A stretch of DNA of 64,000 nt, from positions 2,239-66,238 of the forward strand of contig JBCDBX010000001.1 in the NCBI GenBank assembly GCA_039182865.1, written 5' to 3'. Made by a program: the position numbers and the translations under genes. Position 1 is the stretch's first letter, and each line of letters begins with the position of its first letter. The notes beneath the pieces are model-generated. The model saw nothing but the letters and a program-made list of their open reading frames with translations. It had not been told where the DNA came from and searched no databases. The stretch is from Pseudomonadota bacterium. Its GTDB lineage: Bacteria > Pseudomonadota > Gammaproteobacteria > UBA4575. Below, one piece after another: positions 5,138-33,159 of the stretch.

Positions 5138-6076
5138 CTAAAAACTAAAACTAATTGAATCTTTTATATCAGACGAATTGATTATTAACATTAATACGCG
5201 ATCTAAACCCACAGCCACACCCGCACAATCAGGCAAGCCATGTTGTTGCGCTACAATGAGCCGATAATCTACGTCAATTTCGGGAAGCTTACGTTGCTTT
5301 CTAATATCCAGATCTGTTTGAAAACGATCAAGCTGTTCTTTATGATCCGTGAGCTCAACATAGCCATTCGCCAGTTCTAATTCACCACAAAAGATTTCAA
5401 ATCGCTCAGCTGTTTGCGGATTGTCTTGAGTTATTTTTGCAAGAACCGCCTGTGATGAAGGATATTGATATACTATTGTTAGTGAATTTTTATCAAAAGT
5501 TTTTGTAACACAACGTGTAAACACAAAATCTAATAATTGATCTTTAGAAAAAGACTGTTGGATTTGCAGACCATGTTCGGATGCAATAGATTTAAGTTTC
5601 TCATGAGTAAGCTCAGATAAACTTAAATCCATTACCTGCATACATGCTTGCTCATAGCTAATATAGCTGGGCTGATCTAACCTTGTAACAAGCAAACAGA
5701 TTAAGTTTGCTGCTTCTTGCATAATTTCCTGCAAAGAAAAAGTTTTTCGATACCACTCAAGCATGGTGAATTCAGGATTATGCAAAGGACCTTTTTCACT
5801 TTTACGAAATGATTTGCAGATTTGATAAATATCGGGACTTCCTGATGCAATTAAACGCTTCATAGCATATTCAGGTGAGGTTTGCAGATAATACTTTTCA
5901 TCACCTATCATCACCTCAAATGATTCGATATTGGGGTCCGTTACTGTATATCTATCAAGCAAAGGAGTTTCGACTTCTAGCAGGCCACGTTCAAGAAAAA
6001 ACTCGCGCACTTGCATAAACATTTGAGCTCGCAGCCTGAGGGTTTCTAATGTGGTATTCGGCTGCCAATTTTGCAT
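5138..6076 (-). CDS. epmA: EF-P--(R)-beta-lysine ligase (truncated class II LysRS paralog)
   Basis: 312 aa. MQNWQPNTTLETLRLRAQM...FLERGLLEVETPLL matches GenX/PoxA throughout. Confidence 0.9.
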   Translation of the reverse strand: MQNWQPNTTLETLRLRAQMFMQVREFFLERGLLEVETPLLDRYTVTDPNIESFEVMIGDEKYYLQTSPEYAMKRLIASGSPDIYQICKSFRKSEKGPLHNPEFTMLEWYRKTFSLQEIMQEAANLICLLVTRLDQPSYISYEQACMQVMDLSLSELTHEKLKSIASEHGLQIQQSFSKDQLLDFVFTRCVTKTFDKNSLTIVYQYPSSQAVLAKITQDNPQTAERFEIFCGELELANGYVELTDHKEQLDRFQTDLDIRKQRKLPEIDVDYRLIVAQQHGLPDCAGVAVGLDRVLMLIINSSDIKDSISFSF

Positions 6077-6172
6077 ATTAATTAAACTTGACGAGAGTCA
6101 CGATTTTTTAATTAAATTCTGAAACTCGATTTATTTTAGGGTCATAGCAAATATTAGTCGAGATAGAAAGAT

Positions 6173-6742
6173 CTATTCTTTTACACGCGATACATATTCA
6201 CCTGTTCGCGTGTCAATCTTGATCACTTCACCTTCTTCAACAAATAGCGGGACTTTCACCATAGCACCTGTTTCTAGCGTGGCGGGTTTTGTTGCGCCTT
6301 GGGCCGTATCCCCTTTCACCCCAGGATCGGACTGTGTGATTTTAAGTTCAACAAAATTTGGTGCACTCACGGATAGTGGTGCACCGTTATATAAAGTGAC
6401 AGTGCATACATCATTATCCTTCAACCACTTTGCAGAATCGGCTACTGCAGTGGCATCCGCTGCATGCTGTTCATAGGTCTCTGGATGCATGAAATGCCAT
6501 TGCTCGCCATCGTTATACAAGTACTGCATATCAGTTTCCATGACATCGGCACCTTCGACACTATCTCCGGACTTGAATGTGCGATCAACTACACGACCAG
6601 TTTTTAAATTGCGCACTTTCACGCGATTAAATGCCTGACCTTTACCGGGCTTGACGAATTCATTTTCGACGATTGTGTAGGGATCGCCATCCAACATGAT
6701 TTTCAAACCTGACTTGAATTCATTTGTACTGTAGCTAGCCAT
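6173..6742 (-). CDS. efp: Translation elongation factor P
   Basis: 189 aa. Near-identical motifs to E. coli EF-P, including KPGKGQAF, which carries the beta-lysylated Lys. Confidence 0.95.
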
Positions 6743-6771
6743 AGAGATACTTCTAAATTGAAAGACGCGCT

Positions 6772-7758
6772 ATGATAGCGCGCATGCAAAGCTTGGAACA
6801 TACCCCTGACTGGAAAAAAATATTCGCAAGCGAATATGTTGGCATGACTAATCTCGATTATTCATGTCTGGATATTAGTCAAGATGAACTTAAAGATATA
6901 AACACCCTCTTTCCAGTTCAACTCACGCAATCACTTTTAAGAAATCATTCCGCTAACAGCAAAGTACTGCGACAGTATTTACCAAGCAGACAAGAATTGA
7001 TTAACCCTGTTGGCTACAATATTGACCCAGTTGGTGATCAACAGGCAACTCAACAAGATGGCATCATTAAAAAGTACAAAAATCGAGTCTTGTTGATAAC
7101 AACACATACCTGTCCAGTTCATTGCAGATACTGTTTTCGAAAAGATTACCCTTATGTAAAAGATAACCCAAACTCACATCACTTTAAAAATGCTATATCT
7201 TTTATTGAAAAAGATTCCAGCATAAATGAGGTAATACTAAGTGGAGGAGACCCGCTCAGCTTACAAGATGAGATGCTCTCACAATTATTCAAGACCCTTG
7301 AAAATATTCCTCACGTAAAGACTATTCGGATACATACAAAATTTCCCTCTATCATTCCTGAAAGACTTACCAATAAATTTTTAACTATGCTAGAAAAATG
7401 TAAGATAAATACAATCTGTGTATTTCATATCAATCATCCAGAAGAAATTACTAATAAGTTTTTTATCGTAGCTAAAAATATTCAAGCAACTGGAACAATC
7501 ATGCTGAATCAGTCTGTATTATTAAAAGACGTTAACGACGATCACAAAATTTTAATTGAGCTGTCACATAAATTATTTTCTGCAGGGACACTCCCCTATT
7601 ACCTACACATGCTTGACCCAGCGCGTGGCACGCATCATTTTCACGTAGAGAAGCGACAAGCAGAAGCAATTCTAGATTGTATGAAAAAAGAACTTCCTGG
7701 CTATTTAGTGCCCAAACTTGCTCAAGAAATAGCCGGAGAAATGAGCAAAATCTATTGA
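6772..7758 (+). CDS. epmB: EF-P beta-lysylation protein, lysine 2,3-aminomutase-like radical SAM enzyme
   Basis: CPVHCRYCFR radical-SAM CxxxCxxC motif. Divergent from efp, as in E. coli. Confidence 0.9.
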   Translation: MIARMQSLEHTPDWKKIFASEYVGMTNLDYSCLDISQDELKDINTLFPVQLTQSLLRNHSANSKVLRQYLPSRQELINPVGYNIDPVGDQQATQQDGIIKKYKNRVLLITTHTCPVHCRYCFRKDYPYVKDNPNSHHFKNAISFIEKDSSINEVILSGGDPLSLQDEMLSQLFKTLENIPHVKTIRIHTKFPSIIPERLTNKFLTMLEKCKINTICVFHINHPEEITNKFFIVAKNIQATGTIMLNQSVLLKDVNDDHKILIELSHKLFSAGTLPYYLHMLDPARGTHHFHVEKRQAEAILDCMKKELPGYLVPKLAQEIAGEMSKIY

Positions 7759-7960: not shown

Positions 7961-9706
7961 ATGCTTCTGGATATGCAAATCTATATACCAAGTCAGGACC
8001 CGTTGGCTCATGAAGATTTCGCATTGACACCTCGAAAAGTTAAAAAGTGGATTAAGTCAGCATCACTTGCTGATCCGCAAAAAGCAAGCACGGAATTAAT
8101 CGAACTTATCTCCAATAGCAACCGTGTTACATTCCCAAGCAAGCAGCGCTACGCCTCATTAGAAATATTGGCGCCAATTTGTAAATCAATTTTAGCCCAA
8201 CATAGTAAATCTTTATCTCATCAGACGTTTCCTCTATCAGGAAATGCCGTAAAAAGTCATAATTTTCAGCAATCAATTTTAGCTGAAATAGCAATCTCTT
8301 ATAAGATTATTATTGCTGAAGCTGTGCATGGTGATAACAGTCTCAATCAGAAGAAATTACTATTATCACTTTTCAAGGCTATTTGTTGTTTAAAACAAGA
8401 ATATGTTTCGAGCTTACTAACATATCAAAAAATCTCAGAAAACATCTGGCCTGATATCTGTCAGCTCTATCGTGTTGCAGAATTTTATGATTTTCAAAAT
8501 CGTGTTGTTCAAGATAGAGAGCTTTCAGAAAAAACAACAATCGCAAATATTTTTAAGTATCTATGCTCACTGACCATGATTTCATTCAATAAACTAAGGC
8601 AAGGTGAGGCAAGTGCTATTATAAAATTTTTAAACAAAAACTGTCAGCTAATCGAAATTCAAAGTAATCTTGAGACATTTACTGAAGATTATATTTATCT
8701 TGCTAATTTAGCGACTGGCAAACCGCCTTCGTACTACATACCTAGAGAAGTTCCCATATCTTCAGAGAACCGTTTTGTGCTTTATTCTTTATTCATAAAT
8801 AAACTTTCTGAATTAAAGCAAAAGTATGTGCAGTCTCATTCATACTATCTACACTCTGATGATGAGATTGATCCAGATCTTGCCAATCGTTTAATCGAAA
8901 TGATAGGCAAGCCTACACAAAGAAGCAAAAAGCGCCTAAAAAGCAATCAAAAAGTTAAAGCTATTATTTGCCTAGATAAGATTTTAGAGACTTTAAATCC
9001 TGAACAAGATGAGCCTGATCCCTTAGCTGAAGATTCTTATATTCTACATAGCATGGCCTTGTTACCGATTGAAGAAAAATCAAAAATTATTTTTGATGAA
9101 TCAAAGACAGGAGACAGTCAATGTCTAGATATCTCTCAAAATCTTTCAGATATTTGGGAACATGACTCAGAATTGAATTCTAAGAATGAACAACCTGAAG
9201 AAATAAAAAATAATGATGCCAATGAAACGGGAACCTGGAAAATCGATAACTATAGCTCAGGTGGGTTTTGCCTCACTTATGACACAGATGGAAGTTGCAA
9301 AACACGCGTTGGTGAAATCATCGCTATTCGTGACACAAACAACGCAGATCAAACCATTCAATGGTTAACCGGAACAATTCGGTGGATGCAATGTGATCCA
9401 CAGCATTCAAACCGAATTGGCGTTGAACTATTTGGTGCTGAATGCGCATTTATTACAATACATACTAATAATAATGATTCGACTAAATATCATGGTCTTT
9501 TACTTAAGAAAATTGAAGATAATGAAAAGAAATTTAGCTTGTTAGTCCCTACTCGAGTAAGTTTTGATTCAAATGACATAGTTATACGTGGCAAGAAAAG
9601 TGAACGTAGTGCGATTCTAGGACAAACACTTGAAAAGACTAGCTCTTTTACACATTTTGAAATACTTGAAATAGCGACACAGAATCAAGTTTTAAATAAT
9701 TTATAA
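7961..9706 (+). CDS. 581-aa protein: an approximately 420-aa N-terminal region of unknown function plus a C-terminal non-canonical PilZ domain
   Basis: Residues about 425-500 read KIDNYSSGGFCL ... RVGEIIAIRD ... GTIRWMQ ... RIGVELFG. This matches the PilZ (D/N)xSxxG motif and the beta-barrel core. No RxxxR sits at the canonical -20 to -30 position. The nearest is RSKKR, about 105 aa upstream. Confidence 0.55.
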   Translation: MLLDMQIYIPSQDPLAHEDFALTPRKVKKWIKSASLADPQKASTELIELISNSNRVTFPSKQRYASLEILAPICKSILAQHSKSLSHQTFPLSGNAVKSHNFQQSILAEIAISYKIIIAEAVHGDNSLNQKKLLLSLFKAICCLKQEYVSSLLTYQKISENIWPDICQLYRVAEFYDFQNRVVQDRELSEKTTIANIFKYLCSLTMISFNKLRQGEASAIIKFLNKNCQLIEIQSNLETFTEDYIYLANLATGKPPSYYIPREVPISSENRFVLYSLFINKLSELKQKYVQSHSYYLHSDDEIDPDLANRLIEMIGKPTQRSKKRLKSNQKVKAIICLDKILETLNPEQDEPDPLAEDSYILHSMALLPIEEKSKIIFDESKTGDSQCLDISQNLSDIWEHDSELNSKNEQPEEIKNNDANETGTWKIDNYSSGGFCLTYDTDGSCKTRVGEIIAIRDTNNADQTIQWLTGTIRWMQCDPQHSNRIGVELFGAECAFITIHTNNNDSTKYHGLLLKKIEDNEKKFSLLVPTRVSFDSNDIVIRGKKSERSAILGQTLEKTSSFTHFEILEIATQNQVLNNL

Positions 9707-9718
9707 GCAGTATGCAGT

Positions 9719-11794
9719 ATGGATGAAGTATTAAAATTATTAGTACTTAGCAATAATGCTAACAATGCAGATGATATTATCAGAACTGCCAAGTCTTCAG
9801 GGTTTGCAGTTCGTGATACTATTGTGTCATCCAAAGATGAGTTTTCTGACATATGCTCTTTTGTAGAACAATTCCATATTGCCATTATTTCTGATGACTT
9901 TGACCAGCTTAGCATTAATGAAGTTAGCTCTAGCCTCAAAAGTGATGAACATTATGTATCACTCATTGCACTCAGCAATAATATTGCAGAGACTCAAGCT
10001 GAATCGATGTCAAATGGAGCTGATGCCGTTATCCCTGCAGATGATAAATCACAGCTGACACATGCAATTACACAAATTGCAAAAACTGAATTATATATTC
10101 AGAATCTGCAATCCAAATCAGATGCATATGAGGATTTAAATCAACGCTACCAAAAAATTCTTAATATTTCGCAAGACGCTATTTGTTATATCCATGAAGG
10201 CTTGCACACCTATGTTAATAAATCCTACCTGAAATTATTTGGCATTGAGGATATGGAAGATGCAAGCGCTCTTTCGATTCTTGAACTTGTCAGCCCTGAG
10301 GATCATGATAACTTAAAAAATATTTTAAAAGACGTCCATAAAAATCAAAACTCAGGCGACACTAAGCTAAATTTTAAAACTCAAAATAAAACACAGATTC
10401 TTCAAGCAACTTATGACCCAGTACTTGTTGAAGGAGAAATTTGTGCACAATTTGTTATTCATTGGGAAATAGAAAGCTCTGAAGAGTTGCAGGAACAGAT
10501 TAGTTATATCTCTGAAAGAGATCTTGAGACTGGCTTCTTTCATAGAAAGTCTATCATCGATAAATTACAAGAAGTTTTAAAACCAGACCGCAGTGAATTA
10601 GTCACACACACATTTGTACAAATCGATATAGCAAACCTTGATTACATTCAAGACCAACAAGGCGTTATTGCATTGGACCAGCTTAGCACACATATTGCGG
10701 ATACACTTCAGTCATCTTGTGATGGTGAAGATCTGCTAGCAAAAATCACGGACAAGTCTTATGGCATCCTCACGGATATTACTGACAGTGAGCAGTTAAT
10801 TTTATTTGGAGAGAAATTACGTGAGAGATTTGATGATAATCCTTTAAAAGTTAATGGCATCACCATCGAGCCTAAATTTTATATTGGTGCTGTTCATTTA
10901 GATGAAATGATCGAACAAGCCTCAGATGCGCTTGCTGCCTCTAAGCAGGCTTGTGACCACGCTAGCGAGCATGACCTTAATGAACTCTATTTATATCAAA
11001 GAGACCCTGCAACACTCACAGGAACAATGCTTGATCAAAAATGGGCAAATGAATTACAAGAAGCTATTGATGAGAATCGACTTAAACTTCAATTCCAACC
11101 GATTATTAGTACCAATAACGATAATATTGATCGCTATCAAGTTTATACTCAACTAATTAGTAGAGAAGGCACCAAAATTTCAGTTGCTGGGATTTTGCCC
11201 AGTATTGAACGCTCTGGTGTCTCTTCCATGTTTGATCGATGGGTCGTTGATTTATCATTGATCAAACTTGCCGAGCATACGCAACATAATCCGAATTCAC
11301 AGTTCTTTGTTAAGTTAACCGCAGGTGCGGTATCTGATGCTTCATTTATTCCATGGCTTAGCAAAAAGTGTACTAGTCGAGGCGTTGATCCTGAGAGAGT
11401 GATATTTGATTTGCGTGAAGATGTGGCTATCAATAATTTAAAAGAAACGAGATCATTCTCTACAGAACTCAAGAAACTTGGTTTCCAAATTGCAATTGAT
11501 TCATTCGGCATTGGGCAAGACCCCAGCAAAATACTGACCATGGTTCCTGCGGCTTATTTAAAACTAAGCTTTCAGTTAGTCTCTGGGATTAAAGACAATG
11601 ATGAGGAAAAAATTCAAGCCATCAGAAATATCTGCGAGGCCGCGAGTAATTCCGGTACCAAGATAGTAGCGCAGTTTGTAGAAAACGCAGAAGTCTTATC
11701 ACAATTATGGACAATGAATATTGACTATATAAGCGGTGATTTTTTCTGCAAAGTGGGTGCAAGCTTAGAGTACGACTTTTCAAGCGCTGCCTAG
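9719..11794 (+). CDS. FimX-like degenerate c-di-GMP protein: REC-like / PAS / GGDEF-like / EAL-like
   Basis: 691 aa. REC-like N-terminus with the acidic pair replaced (LLVLSNN). PAS (ICYIHEGLHTYVNKSYLKLFGIE). GGDEF fold starting ERDLETGFFHR, with the A-site GG(D/E)EF position reading TDKSYG. EAL fold (LQFQPIIS...) with EAL replaced by QVY and DDFGTG replaced by DSFGIG. The C-terminal (V)AEGVE and QGY positions read VAQFVE and SGDFF. Confidence 0.75.
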   Translation: MDEVLKLLVLSNNANNADDIIRTAKSSGFAVRDTIVSSKDEFSDICSFVEQFHIAIISDDFDQLSINEVSSSLKSDEHYVSLIALSNNIAETQAESMSNGADAVIPADDKSQLTHAITQIAKTELYIQNLQSKSDAYEDLNQRYQKILNISQDAICYIHEGLHTYVNKSYLKLFGIEDMEDASALSILELVSPEDHDNLKNILKDVHKNQNSGDTKLNFKTQNKTQILQATYDPVLVEGEICAQFVIHWEIESSEELQEQISYISERDLETGFFHRKSIIDKLQEVLKPDRSELVTHTFVQIDIANLDYIQDQQGVIALDQLSTHIADTLQSSCDGEDLLAKITDKSYGILTDITDSEQLILFGEKLRERFDDNPLKVNGITIEPKFYIGAVHLDEMIEQASDALAASKQACDHASEHDLNELYLYQRDPATLTGTMLDQKWANELQEAIDENRLKLQFQPIISTNNDNIDRYQVYTQLISREGTKISVAGILPSIERSGVSSMFDRWVVDLSLIKLAEHTQHNPNSQFFVKLTAGAVSDASFIPWLSKKCTSRGVDPERVIFDLREDVAINNLKETRSFSTELKKLGFQIAIDSFGIGQDPSKILTMVPAAYLKLSFQLVSGIKDNDEEKIQAIRNICEAASNSGTKIVAQFVENAEVLSQLWTMNIDYISGDFFCKVGASLEYDFSSAA

Positions 11795-31452: not shown

Positions 31453-33159
31453 ATGAAACTGCTACTTCCATTGTTACTAGTATCACTCTTATCGTCTGCT
31501 GCATTTGCCGACAAGAATAAGCACTCTACTAAAGAATTATTAGAAGAGGCAGAGCAGACTATGCAAAGCCCAGAAGTTTCACCTGTGCGAAGAATCGAAC
31601 CTAAATTCAACAAGAATAAAAATAAACAGCACAATATTATTTATCGGAATATTGATGGTAGTTTCAACAATATTATCGATGATCAAATGAATGTCACAGA
31701 TACACAATTGATACGAGTCGCTGATGAAACTTACGGTGATGGTATCAGTGCTATGGGAGGAACTGATCGACCAAACCCAAGAGCAATCAGTAATGCGGCG
31801 TTATCTCAGACAGAATTATCATTCGCAAGTACAGGGGCAAGTGATTTTTTATGGCAATGGGGTCAATTTTTGGATCATGATATTGATTTGACCGAGGGCG
31901 TACACCCTGCCGAAGAAGTCCCTATCTCCATTCCTGCTGGTGATATACATTTCGACCCAAATAATATGGGCAATGTCGTCTTAGCATTCAACCGTTCAAT
32001 ATATGATACAAATACGGGAACAGATTCCAGTAATCCGCGTCAGCAAAAAAATGAAATTACGGGTTGGATTGATGCTTCGAATGTATATGGCTCGGATGAT
32101 GAACGCGCTCAAGCTTTGCGCAGATTGGATGGTTCAGGAAAGCTAAAAACTAGCGATGGTCGCCTTCTACCATTTAATACTGATGGCTTAATTAATGCAG
32201 GCGGTCCTAGTGCTGAATTTTTCTTGGCAGGCGACCCTCGTGCGAATGAACAAATAGGCTTAACCGTCATGCATACTCTGTTCGTGCGAGAACATAACCG
32301 TCTTGCAAGAATAATCGCTAAAAAGAATCCATTTTACAGCGGCGAAAGAATTTATCAGACAGCTCGTCGAATCGTAGCGGCTCAAATGCAAGTCATCACT
32401 TACAATGAATTTTTACCGATACTACTTGGCAAAAATGCAATTCCTAAATATGAAGGCTATGATCCTAATATAGACGCACGTATTGCAAACGAATTTTCAA
32501 CAGCGGCGTACCGACTCGGCCATAGTTTGCTATCACCACAAATTCTACGTATATATAAAAAACGTAAAAATTTCGACAATAGTGAAATCTCTTTACGCGA
32601 AGCTTTCTTTGCACCATTTCTTCTGACCAAAAAGAATAACATTGGCTCTATATTGCGCGGCTTAGCTTCTCAACAGTGTCAAGAACTTGATGTGTTCGTT
32701 ATTGATGACGTACGTAATTTCTTGTTTGGTCAGCCCGGAAGCGGAGGCTTTGATCTTGCTTCATTAAACATTCAACGTGGGCGAGATCATGGTCTTGGAA
32801 GCTACAATCAAACACGTATTGCACTTGGTTTACCTGCTGCTACTTCATTTGAAGATATTTCTTCTGACCCTGACATCCAAGCTAGACTTTCCAATGCTTA
32901 CGACAACGTAGACTTAATCGACCTCTGGGTGGGGGGATTAGCTGAAGATAAAGTTGATGGCGCCATGGTCGGACCCGTATTTTATGAGATTCTTAGAGAT
33001 CAATTCATACGCTTACGTGACGGAGATCGATTTTGGTACGAAAACGATATGAGTAAGAAAGAAATAAGGAACATTAAGAAAACAACTTTAGCAAAAATAA
33101 TTCGGCGCAATACAGGAGTTGGCAGAGAATTACAAAACAATGTTTTCTTGGTTAAGTAA
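31453..33159 (+). CDS. Secreted animal-type heme peroxidase (peroxidase-cyclooxygenase superfamily)
   Basis: Signal peptide. Distal His/Asp motif WGQFLDHDID. RANEQ heme-linking Glu motif. Proximal His in TLFVREHNRLA. Distal Arg in FSTAAYRLGHS. Confidence 0.8.
   Translation: MKLLLPLLLVSLLSSAAFADKNKHSTKELLEEAEQTMQSPEVSPVRRIEPKFNKNKNKQHNIIYRNIDGSFNNIIDDQMNVTDTQLIRVADETYGDGISAMGGTDRPNPRAISNAALSQTELSFASTGASDFLWQWGQFLDHDIDLTEGVHPAEEVPISIPAGDIHFDPNNMGNVVLAFNRSIYDTNTGTDSSNPRQQKNEITGWIDASNVYGSDDERAQALRRLDGSGKLKTSDGRLLPFNTDGLINAGGPSAEFFLAGDPRANEQIGLTVMHTLFVREHNRLARIIAKKNPFYSGERIYQTARRIVAAQMQVITYNEFLPILLGKNAIPKYEGYDPNIDARIANEFSTAAYRLGHSLLSPQILRIYKKRKNFDNSEISLREAFFAPFLLTKKNNIGSILRGLASQQCQELDVFVIDDVRNFLFGQPGSGGFDLASLNIQRGRDHGLGSYNQTRIALGLPAATSFEDISSDPDIQARLSNAYDNVDLIDLWVGGLAEDKVDGAMVGPVFYEILRDQFIRLRDGDRFWYENDMSKKEIRNIKKTTLAKIIRRNTGVGRELQNNVFLVK

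Follow-up and report, generated by a model that had tools for sequence, protein, structure and literature searches.

The window, by which we mean the whole stretch of 64,000 nucleotides analysed here, carries on its plus strand a gene for a 581-residue protein, followed 13 nt past its stop codon by a gene whose product combines PAS, GGDEF and EAL domains. The 581-residue protein is identical to GenBank MEM8843420.1, which is annotated as a 'hypothetical protein' of a Pseudomonadota MAG, and it begins with the N-terminus MLLDMQIY that it has in common with its homologues. A minus-strand reading frame at the junction of the two genes (9685..9939) was rejected as an overlap artefact. The features of the locus are as follows.

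7961..9706, plus strand: fimW-like gene, 581 aa, taken from the list of open reading frames
7961..8860, plus strand: N-terminal domain, mostly helical, about aa 1-300, FimW_N
8921..8935, plus strand: RxxxR motif, R321-S-K-K-R325, on a predicted flexible loop; R321 and R325 in 106 of 106 relatives
8951..8968, plus strand: aa 331-336 (KVKAII), predicted as a strand in both models and assigned as beta1 of the barrel; then a short helix, aa 338-345
8975..9232, plus strand: lineage-variable acidic insert between beta1 and beta2, aa 339-424, low pLDDT; lacking in short-linker relatives
9149..9157, plus strand: D-x-W motif within the insert, D397-I-W399, conserved in long-linker sequences
9233..9466, plus strand: PilZ-like beta-barrel, beta2 to beta7, aa 425-502; contains the interval 9233-9460 flagged at the outset
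9248..9265, plus strand: (D/N)xSxxG motif, N430-Y-S-S-G-G435, conserved; in hhalign register with DLSLGG (non-significant)
9473..9679, plus strand: second C-terminal beta-barrel-like module, aa 505-573, five more strands, then a short helix
9719..11794, plus strand: FimX-like gene, 691 aa, with receiver-like N-terminus, PAS, degenerate GGDEF and degenerate EAL (Pfam PAS, GGDEF, EAL)

The interval 9233-9460 is in frame with the open reading frame 7961..9706 and encodes residues 425-500 (TWKIDNYSSGGFCL...AFITI). The initial annotation had described it as having an intact (D/N)xSxxG motif, with the only RxxxR about 105 residues upstream. This description holds: NYSSGG (aa 430-435) is intact and conserved in the family, RSKKR (aa 321-325) is the sole RxxxR of the whole protein, and 104 residues lie between R325 and N430. 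The numbering R321/R325 was exact, whereas N429/S431 was one position off and has to read N430/S432. Another match to [DN]xSxxG, DESKTG (aa 379), was rejected as a second motif, since it sits in the insert and is unconserved. By themselves, the presence of RxxxR and NxSxxG is weak evidence and not beyond chance. When the 581-residue protein was shuffled 20,000 times, 18% of the shuffles contained [DN]xSxxG, 45% contained RxxxR, and 2% had the two motifs correctly ordered within 130 residues. We take the motifs as real because they are conserved across the family and not because of their mere occurrence. An alignment of 106 members was assembled from 83 loci and 23 database proteins. Every member has R321, R325 and G435; position 430 is occupied by N in 102 sequences and by D in four, and position 432 by S in 90 and by N in 16. 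The same picture emerges from 150 diverse representatives, chosen at no more than 50% mutual identity: none departs from R325 or G435, and conservation reaches at least 90% at R321, N430 and S432. Few positions elsewhere in the protein match the conservation of these residues.

Several searches connect the protein with the FimW family. Searching 5.8 billion proteins yielded 49 relatives, among them the identical MAG protein, and PF27104 (FimW_N) is precomputed on all of these except two fragmentary matches. This includes the identical database entry (P0001), and some relatives also carry PF27125 (FimW_C). For the exact protein no PF27125 is recorded, while close relatives (P0002, P0004, P0034 and P0043) have it; despite the missing record, the C-terminal half is collinear with FimW in BLASTP. 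Our own scan against NCBIfam and a Pfam version that lacks FimW_N and FimW_C gave no match for the 581-residue protein or for the Pseudomonas and other orthologues, and phmmer with the whole protein found no match among PDB sequences. A profile built from 23 relatives recovered 4,749 cluster representatives at E<=1e-3; at the stricter cutoff of E<=1e-30 there were 1,943. When one genome per species was scanned, 232 loci with a relative were found, and the best 80 of the 232 are mostly from Pseudomonas, with tblastn alignments in the Pseudomonas loci among these 80 that cover residues ~2-575 (E 1e-26 to 1e-33). P. aeruginosa itself is not in the best 80 of the 232 loci, and the Pseudomonas comparison is therefore one with other orthologues that have fimX downstream. 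The Pseudomonas relatives are mostly named 'molecular chaperone' or 'hypothetical protein'; the name 'cyclic-di-GMP receptor FimW' occurs in one record. With this record, BLASTP gives a collinear alignment over aa 5-567 (E=3e-29, 22% identity), in which RSKKR lies over RAFQR and NYSSGG over NHSPGG. Full-length collinear homology thus goes together with the FimW_N domain, with both motifs at a spacing within the family range (104 residues here, 99-103 in Pseudomonas) and with a position adjacent to a fimX-like gene. We conclude that the open reading frame 7961..9706 probably encodes a distant orthologue of FimW, that is, a c-di-GMP receptor-type protein with split PilZ motifs. Judged by sequence homology, the 581-residue protein is a new, divergent member of this known family, and the annotation 'hypothetical protein' is to be corrected to fimW-like.

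FimW is the product of PA4958 (PMC10335732). [quoted passage not shown] Upon c-di-GMP binding the protein dimerises (PMC10212136), and a 2025 review counts FimW with the PilZ-domain effectors (PMC12564702). The protein of the window resembles P. aeruginosa FimW (PA4958; PF27104, PF27125) in its collinear order: a helical N-terminus comes first, then RxxxR, which an insert of about 100 residues separates from NxSxxG, and finally the barrels at the C-terminus. There are also clear differences. Identity to the Pseudomonas FimW orthologues is about 22%, RSKKR stands where Pseudomonas FimW has RSFQR, and the insert is more acidic, with D-x-W as the sole insert element common to both. Furthermore, C337 occupies a position at which Gly is near-invariant in the FimW family, and the host belongs to an uncultured gammaproteobacterial lineage of low GC content (39%).

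Structure prediction, which had been suggested for the flagged region, was run with AlphaFold2 on the full-length protein (model 1, 23-sequence alignment, mean pLDDT 74.5) and on residues 312-581 alone (model 2); the predicted model that carries the fold evidence has a mean pLDDT of 71. In model 1, residues 1 to ~300 are confident and mostly helical, while pLDDT is below 50 in the RxxxR loop (320-323) and in the insert (349-423). Residues 331-336 form a strand and residues 338-345 a helix, and eleven strands extend across 426-572 before a terminal helix. Model 2 agrees with model 1 and assigns a pLDDT of ~91 to the segment 331-340. What is predicted is a PilZ-type barrel whose first strand is preceded by the RxxxR loop in the usual way, and beta1 (331-336) would pair with this barrel. 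In a Foldseek search the eight best matches were two-barrel PilZ proteins, namely MotI (E=3e-4, probability 0.99), MrkH and YcgR. The PilZ-like character proposed at the outset is hence borne out by the predicted fold, which matches PilZ domains best. Since the alignment with MotI, MrkH and YcgR runs over ~195 columns, two barrels in tandem are suggested for the C-terminal half; unlike in YcgR, the one that bears the motifs comes first.

Canonical PilZ domains (PF07238) are found in YcgR, VCA0042/PlzD, BcsA, Alg44 and PA4608. Like these, the protein described here has both RxxxR (RSKKR, 321-325) and (D/N)xSxxG (NYSSGG, 430-435). It is predicted to form the six-stranded split beta-barrel, with RxxxR on a flexible loop before beta1 and (D/N)xSxxG at the turn between beta2 and beta3. 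In contrast to canonical PilZ proteins, the barrel has a large helical domain on one side and a further barrel on the other. Sequence statistics give less, and no sequence-based method attains significance for PilZ. PF07238 finds no match in the 581-residue protein even at E<=1, and its gathering score is not reached. When 82 diverse family members were scanned singly against Pfam, PF07238 appeared below threshold in 12 of them (best E 5e-4), and it was the sole recurrent weak match, every other family appearing in at most three members; one distant relative gave a PilZ match at E=0.016. An HMM from 12 natural short-linker C-terminal domains retrieved no PilZ chain from the PDB, only a chance match (E=0.58). 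Likewise, hhalign of FimW C-terminal profiles against YcgR, either as single sequence or as an alignment of 101 enterobacterial sequences, stayed below 1% probability. In both runs NxSxxG came to lie in register with DLSLGG of YcgR, a non-significant alignment to a YcgR set that is too narrow for a fair PilZ profile. Because of the fold matches, the motif positions and the weak PF07238 matches, we take the motif-bearing barrel to be a divergent PilZ domain, with the predicted structure outweighing the sequence statistics as the basis for this assignment.

The most conspicuous deviation from canonical PilZ domains is the distance between the motifs, 104 residues here compared to 26 in YcgR and ~20-30 in canonical members generally. 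Within the FimW family this distance is the norm. Pseudomonas orthologues have gaps of 99-103 residues and members of the window's clade gaps of 102-110, and over 150 representatives the gap varies continuously from 36 to 158 with a mode at ~100-115. A short-linker subfamily of proteins with 503-541 aa has gaps of 36-65 residues. In the alignment, the extra length falls after the KVKAIICLD segment (usually ending in G-L) and before the strand W-x-[IV]-x-N-x-S-x-G-G. In E. coli YcgR, eight residues lead from RRYFR to beta1, after which come beta2 and DLSLGG; in the 581-residue protein, five residues lead from RSKKR to a strand, and the insert and another strand come before NYSSGG. As the strand five residues past RxxxR parallels YcgR, we assign it as beta1 and place the insert in the beta1-beta2 loop, which on PilZ topology would be its simplest location. 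The motifs are thus far apart in sequence because an insert of ~85 residues fills the loop between the first two strands of the barrel. This insert is predicted to be disordered except for one short helix, and 19 of 74 residues are D/E as opposed to five K/R. The natural short-linker relatives keep the motifs, which shows that the spacing results from insertion and that the motifs have not decayed. An atypically long linker had been offered initially as the second choice, and this was essentially right, the extra length being an insertion past the strand that follows RxxxR; it is the word 'atypical' that does not apply to this family. There is also a more general point: neither a spacing rule that expects RxxxR 20-30 residues ahead of DxSxxG nor Pfam's PilZ model picks up this family of thousands of proteins.

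The first choice had been an adaptor-type PilZ protein, similar to PA2960 or XAC1133, in which c-di-GMP binding is lost and protein-protein contacts are all that remains. There are reasons to consider this. The motif spacing is about four times the canonical one, the Pfam PilZ model misses the domain, and the adjoining gene is FimX-like, while FimX of Xanthomonas works with a non-binding PilZ protein (10.1101/814665). Adaptor PilZ proteins are likewise linked to type IV pilus control. However, in the adaptors (PA2960; XAC1133/XC1028) the RxxxR loop and the second motif are lost and the N-terminal strand is remodelled (10.1101/814665), whereas the 581-residue protein retains both motifs. As motifs they are invariant in the 106 relatives, conserved in the 150 representatives and among the best-conserved positions of the protein. 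Moreover, Pseudomonas orthologues of FimW, reported to be a c-di-GMP receptor, have equally long spacing, and the existence of natural short-linker relatives speaks for insertion and against decay. The adaptor interpretation is therefore very improbable, and we do not retain it. A further reading would question homology to PilZ altogether: the C-terminal barrel might be a generic split beta-barrel, with motifs conserved for some other reason and c-di-GMP bound via another site. We consider such a generic barrel highly unlikely.

Interruption of a PilZ barrel has a precedent in the tPilZ proteins (XCC6012, PA2989, PlzB), which carry a 57-aa two-helix insertion between beta1 and beta2 (PMC3131395). 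Members with intact motifs, for example PA2989, still bind c-di-GMP (10.1101/814665), which shows that an insert of this kind does not preclude ligand binding. The FimW-like barrel is interrupted at the same inferred place. However, tPilZ proteins (PF16823) are stand-alone proteins with a tetramerising insert of ~60 aa made of two heptad-repeat helices, while the insert here is predicted to be disordered and is part of a multidomain protein. Neither the 581-residue protein nor any of the 82 family members matched PilZ_2, and the survey of PilZ variants (10.1101/814665) does not mention FimW or PA4958.

The FimX-like neighbour carries TDKSY at the GGDEF site and QVY at the EAL site, both degenerate. 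It can be aligned to the products of the genes that lie next to fimW on the downstream side in Pseudomonas-lineage loci. There the respective motifs are GDDVF and EVL, as expected for FimX; QVY is even more degenerate than EVL, which counts against the overall reading. Of 83 loci, 18 have a FimX-like gene after the fimW homologue, including loci from the clade of the window, from two distant MAGs and from Pseudomonas and Aquipseudomonas species. In the clade of the window L009 is the sole exception, and L004 is cut at the end of the gene. Most other Pseudomonas loci among the 83 have no FimX-like gene downstream, and adjacency is hence not universal in the family.

The results show homology, conserved motifs, an insert of variable length, synteny and, by prediction, a PilZ fold, and on this footing a mechanism can be proposed for the FimW-like protein. 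It would consist of three modules, the helical FimW_N domain, the flexible RxxxR loop with the PilZ-type beta-barrel, and a second small barrel. In the folded protein RxxxR would stand directly before beta1 and NxSxxG at the beta2/beta3 turn with the insert looped out, and both motifs together would form a c-di-GMP site of canonical style, the proximity and geometry of which we infer from PilZ topology. With the motifs placed as in canonical PilZ domains, such a site should be capable of c-di-GMP binding. [quoted passage not shown] Sensing of c-di-GMP for the control of type IV pili is most likely the function by this analogy, from which a pilus-related output may also be expected in this organism. 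Identification of fimW together with a fimX-like gene predicts a Pseudomonas-style control of type IV pili by c-di-GMP in an uncultured gammaproteobacterium.

Two leads on the mechanism of FimW emerge, the site of the variable insert, which is common with tPilZ, and the D-x-W motif conserved within it. D397 and W399 (LSDIWE) are matched by D and W in 98 of 100 long-linker sequences, the equivalent of W399 is found in 113 of 127 long-linker representatives, and D-x-W is absent from short-linker members. In the model of the C-terminal part, W399 is the sole residue between 357 and 420 that reaches a pLDDT of at least 50. D-x-W may serve as ligand contact, as dimerisation latch or as a motif for docking of a partner. 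One could go further and regard the insert as a regulatory module, with D-x-W as third ligand contact or as a latch for dimerisation or docking, and with a three-part site unlike that of canonical PilZ domains. The conservation of D397 and W399 inside an otherwise variable stretch, and the confidence of W399 amid low-confidence residues, are in line with a regulatory insert. So are the role of the tPilZ insert, which mediates oligomerisation from the same site (PMC3131395), and the dimerisation of FimW upon c-di-GMP binding (PMC10212136). On the other hand, short-linker members retain RxxxR and NxSxxG without D-x-W and the stretch is predicted to be disordered, and we put this forward as a tentative proposal, rather doubtful at present, that refines the interpretation as a FimW orthologue with split PilZ motifs rather than competing with it. 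In the same speculative vein, and with as little confidence, FimW-type proteins could form a distinct 'split PilZ' class. In this class the insert of ~100 residues would be functional, D-x-W folding onto the barrel or onto c-di-GMP upon binding, either as a third binding element or as a latch through which ligand binding leads to dimerisation and to recruitment to the pole. The short-linker subfamily would then work differently; in the two of its loci that were examined (L001, L002) there is no linkage to fimX.

Among the 21 open reading frames of the window that were scanned against Pfam, no type IV pilus genes were found, and this counts against the proposed function. The pair is preceded by efp, epmA-like and epmB-like genes and followed by genes for an M48 peptidase, parC and parE. 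FimW loci share this arrangement, in which the fimW-like gene immediately precedes a FimX-like gene and parC and parE are close by. At the distant locus L003, a parC-type gene is located two genes past the fimX-like gene.

The insert that separates RxxxR (aa 321-325) from NxSxxG (aa 430-435) in the 581-aa FimW-like protein is variable and predicted to be disordered for most of its length, however one short element within it is strongly conserved.

8969-8971: Cys at aa 337, in an alignment column that is Gly in other family members
9149-9157: D-x-W motif (LSDIWE), aa 397-399, in the insert 8975-9232
9473-9679: second beta-barrel-like module, aa 505-573, C-terminal to the PilZ-like barrel
9719-11794, forward strand: FimX-like gene, both catalytic sites degenerate

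Sequence comparison recovered D-x-W in 98 of 100 relatives with the long linker, and its Trp is kept in 113/127 long-linker representatives. In the same comparison, the motif was absent from the short-linker relatives.

Short-linker FimW relatives (database relative P0047), motif spacing 45 aa: locus L001, 6001-7548; locus L002, 94-1641

At both of these loci thioredoxin and rho adjoin the short-linker gene, and neither has a fimX neighbour. These neighbourhoods hint that the short-linker relatives form a functionally separate branch.

The family alignment has Gly at aa 337 in 105 of 106 relatives, as part of a conserved G-L that closes the strand following RxxxR, while the window protein carries Cys. 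Foldseek matched its predicted model to MotI, MrkH and YcgR, which have two barrels each, in alignments of about 195 columns, but here the barrel with the motif is the first of the two.

The FimX-like neighbour reads TDKSY at the GGDEF site and QVY at the EAL site, whereas Pseudomonas FimX orthologues have GDDVF and EVL, respectively. The protein probably acts in sensing or as an adaptor rather than as an enzyme.

Pseudomonas FimW orthologues (loci L014, L044, L054, L061, L072, L077 and L079) are named "molecular chaperone" or "hypothetical protein" in RefSeq/GenBank; only one record among the named orthologues reads "cyclic-di-GMP receptor FimW", and NCBIfam holds no model covering the family.

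5138-7758: EF-P modification cluster, just upstream of the fimW-like gene
31453-33159, forward strand: 568-aa ORF

The EF-P cluster, comprising a class II tRNA-synthetase paralogue (epmA-like), efp and a radical-SAM gene (epmB-like), is ordinary housekeeping surroundings. The 568-aa ORF matches Pfam "animal haem peroxidase" over its full length (E=3e-162), a family match that is unusual for a bacterial genome.
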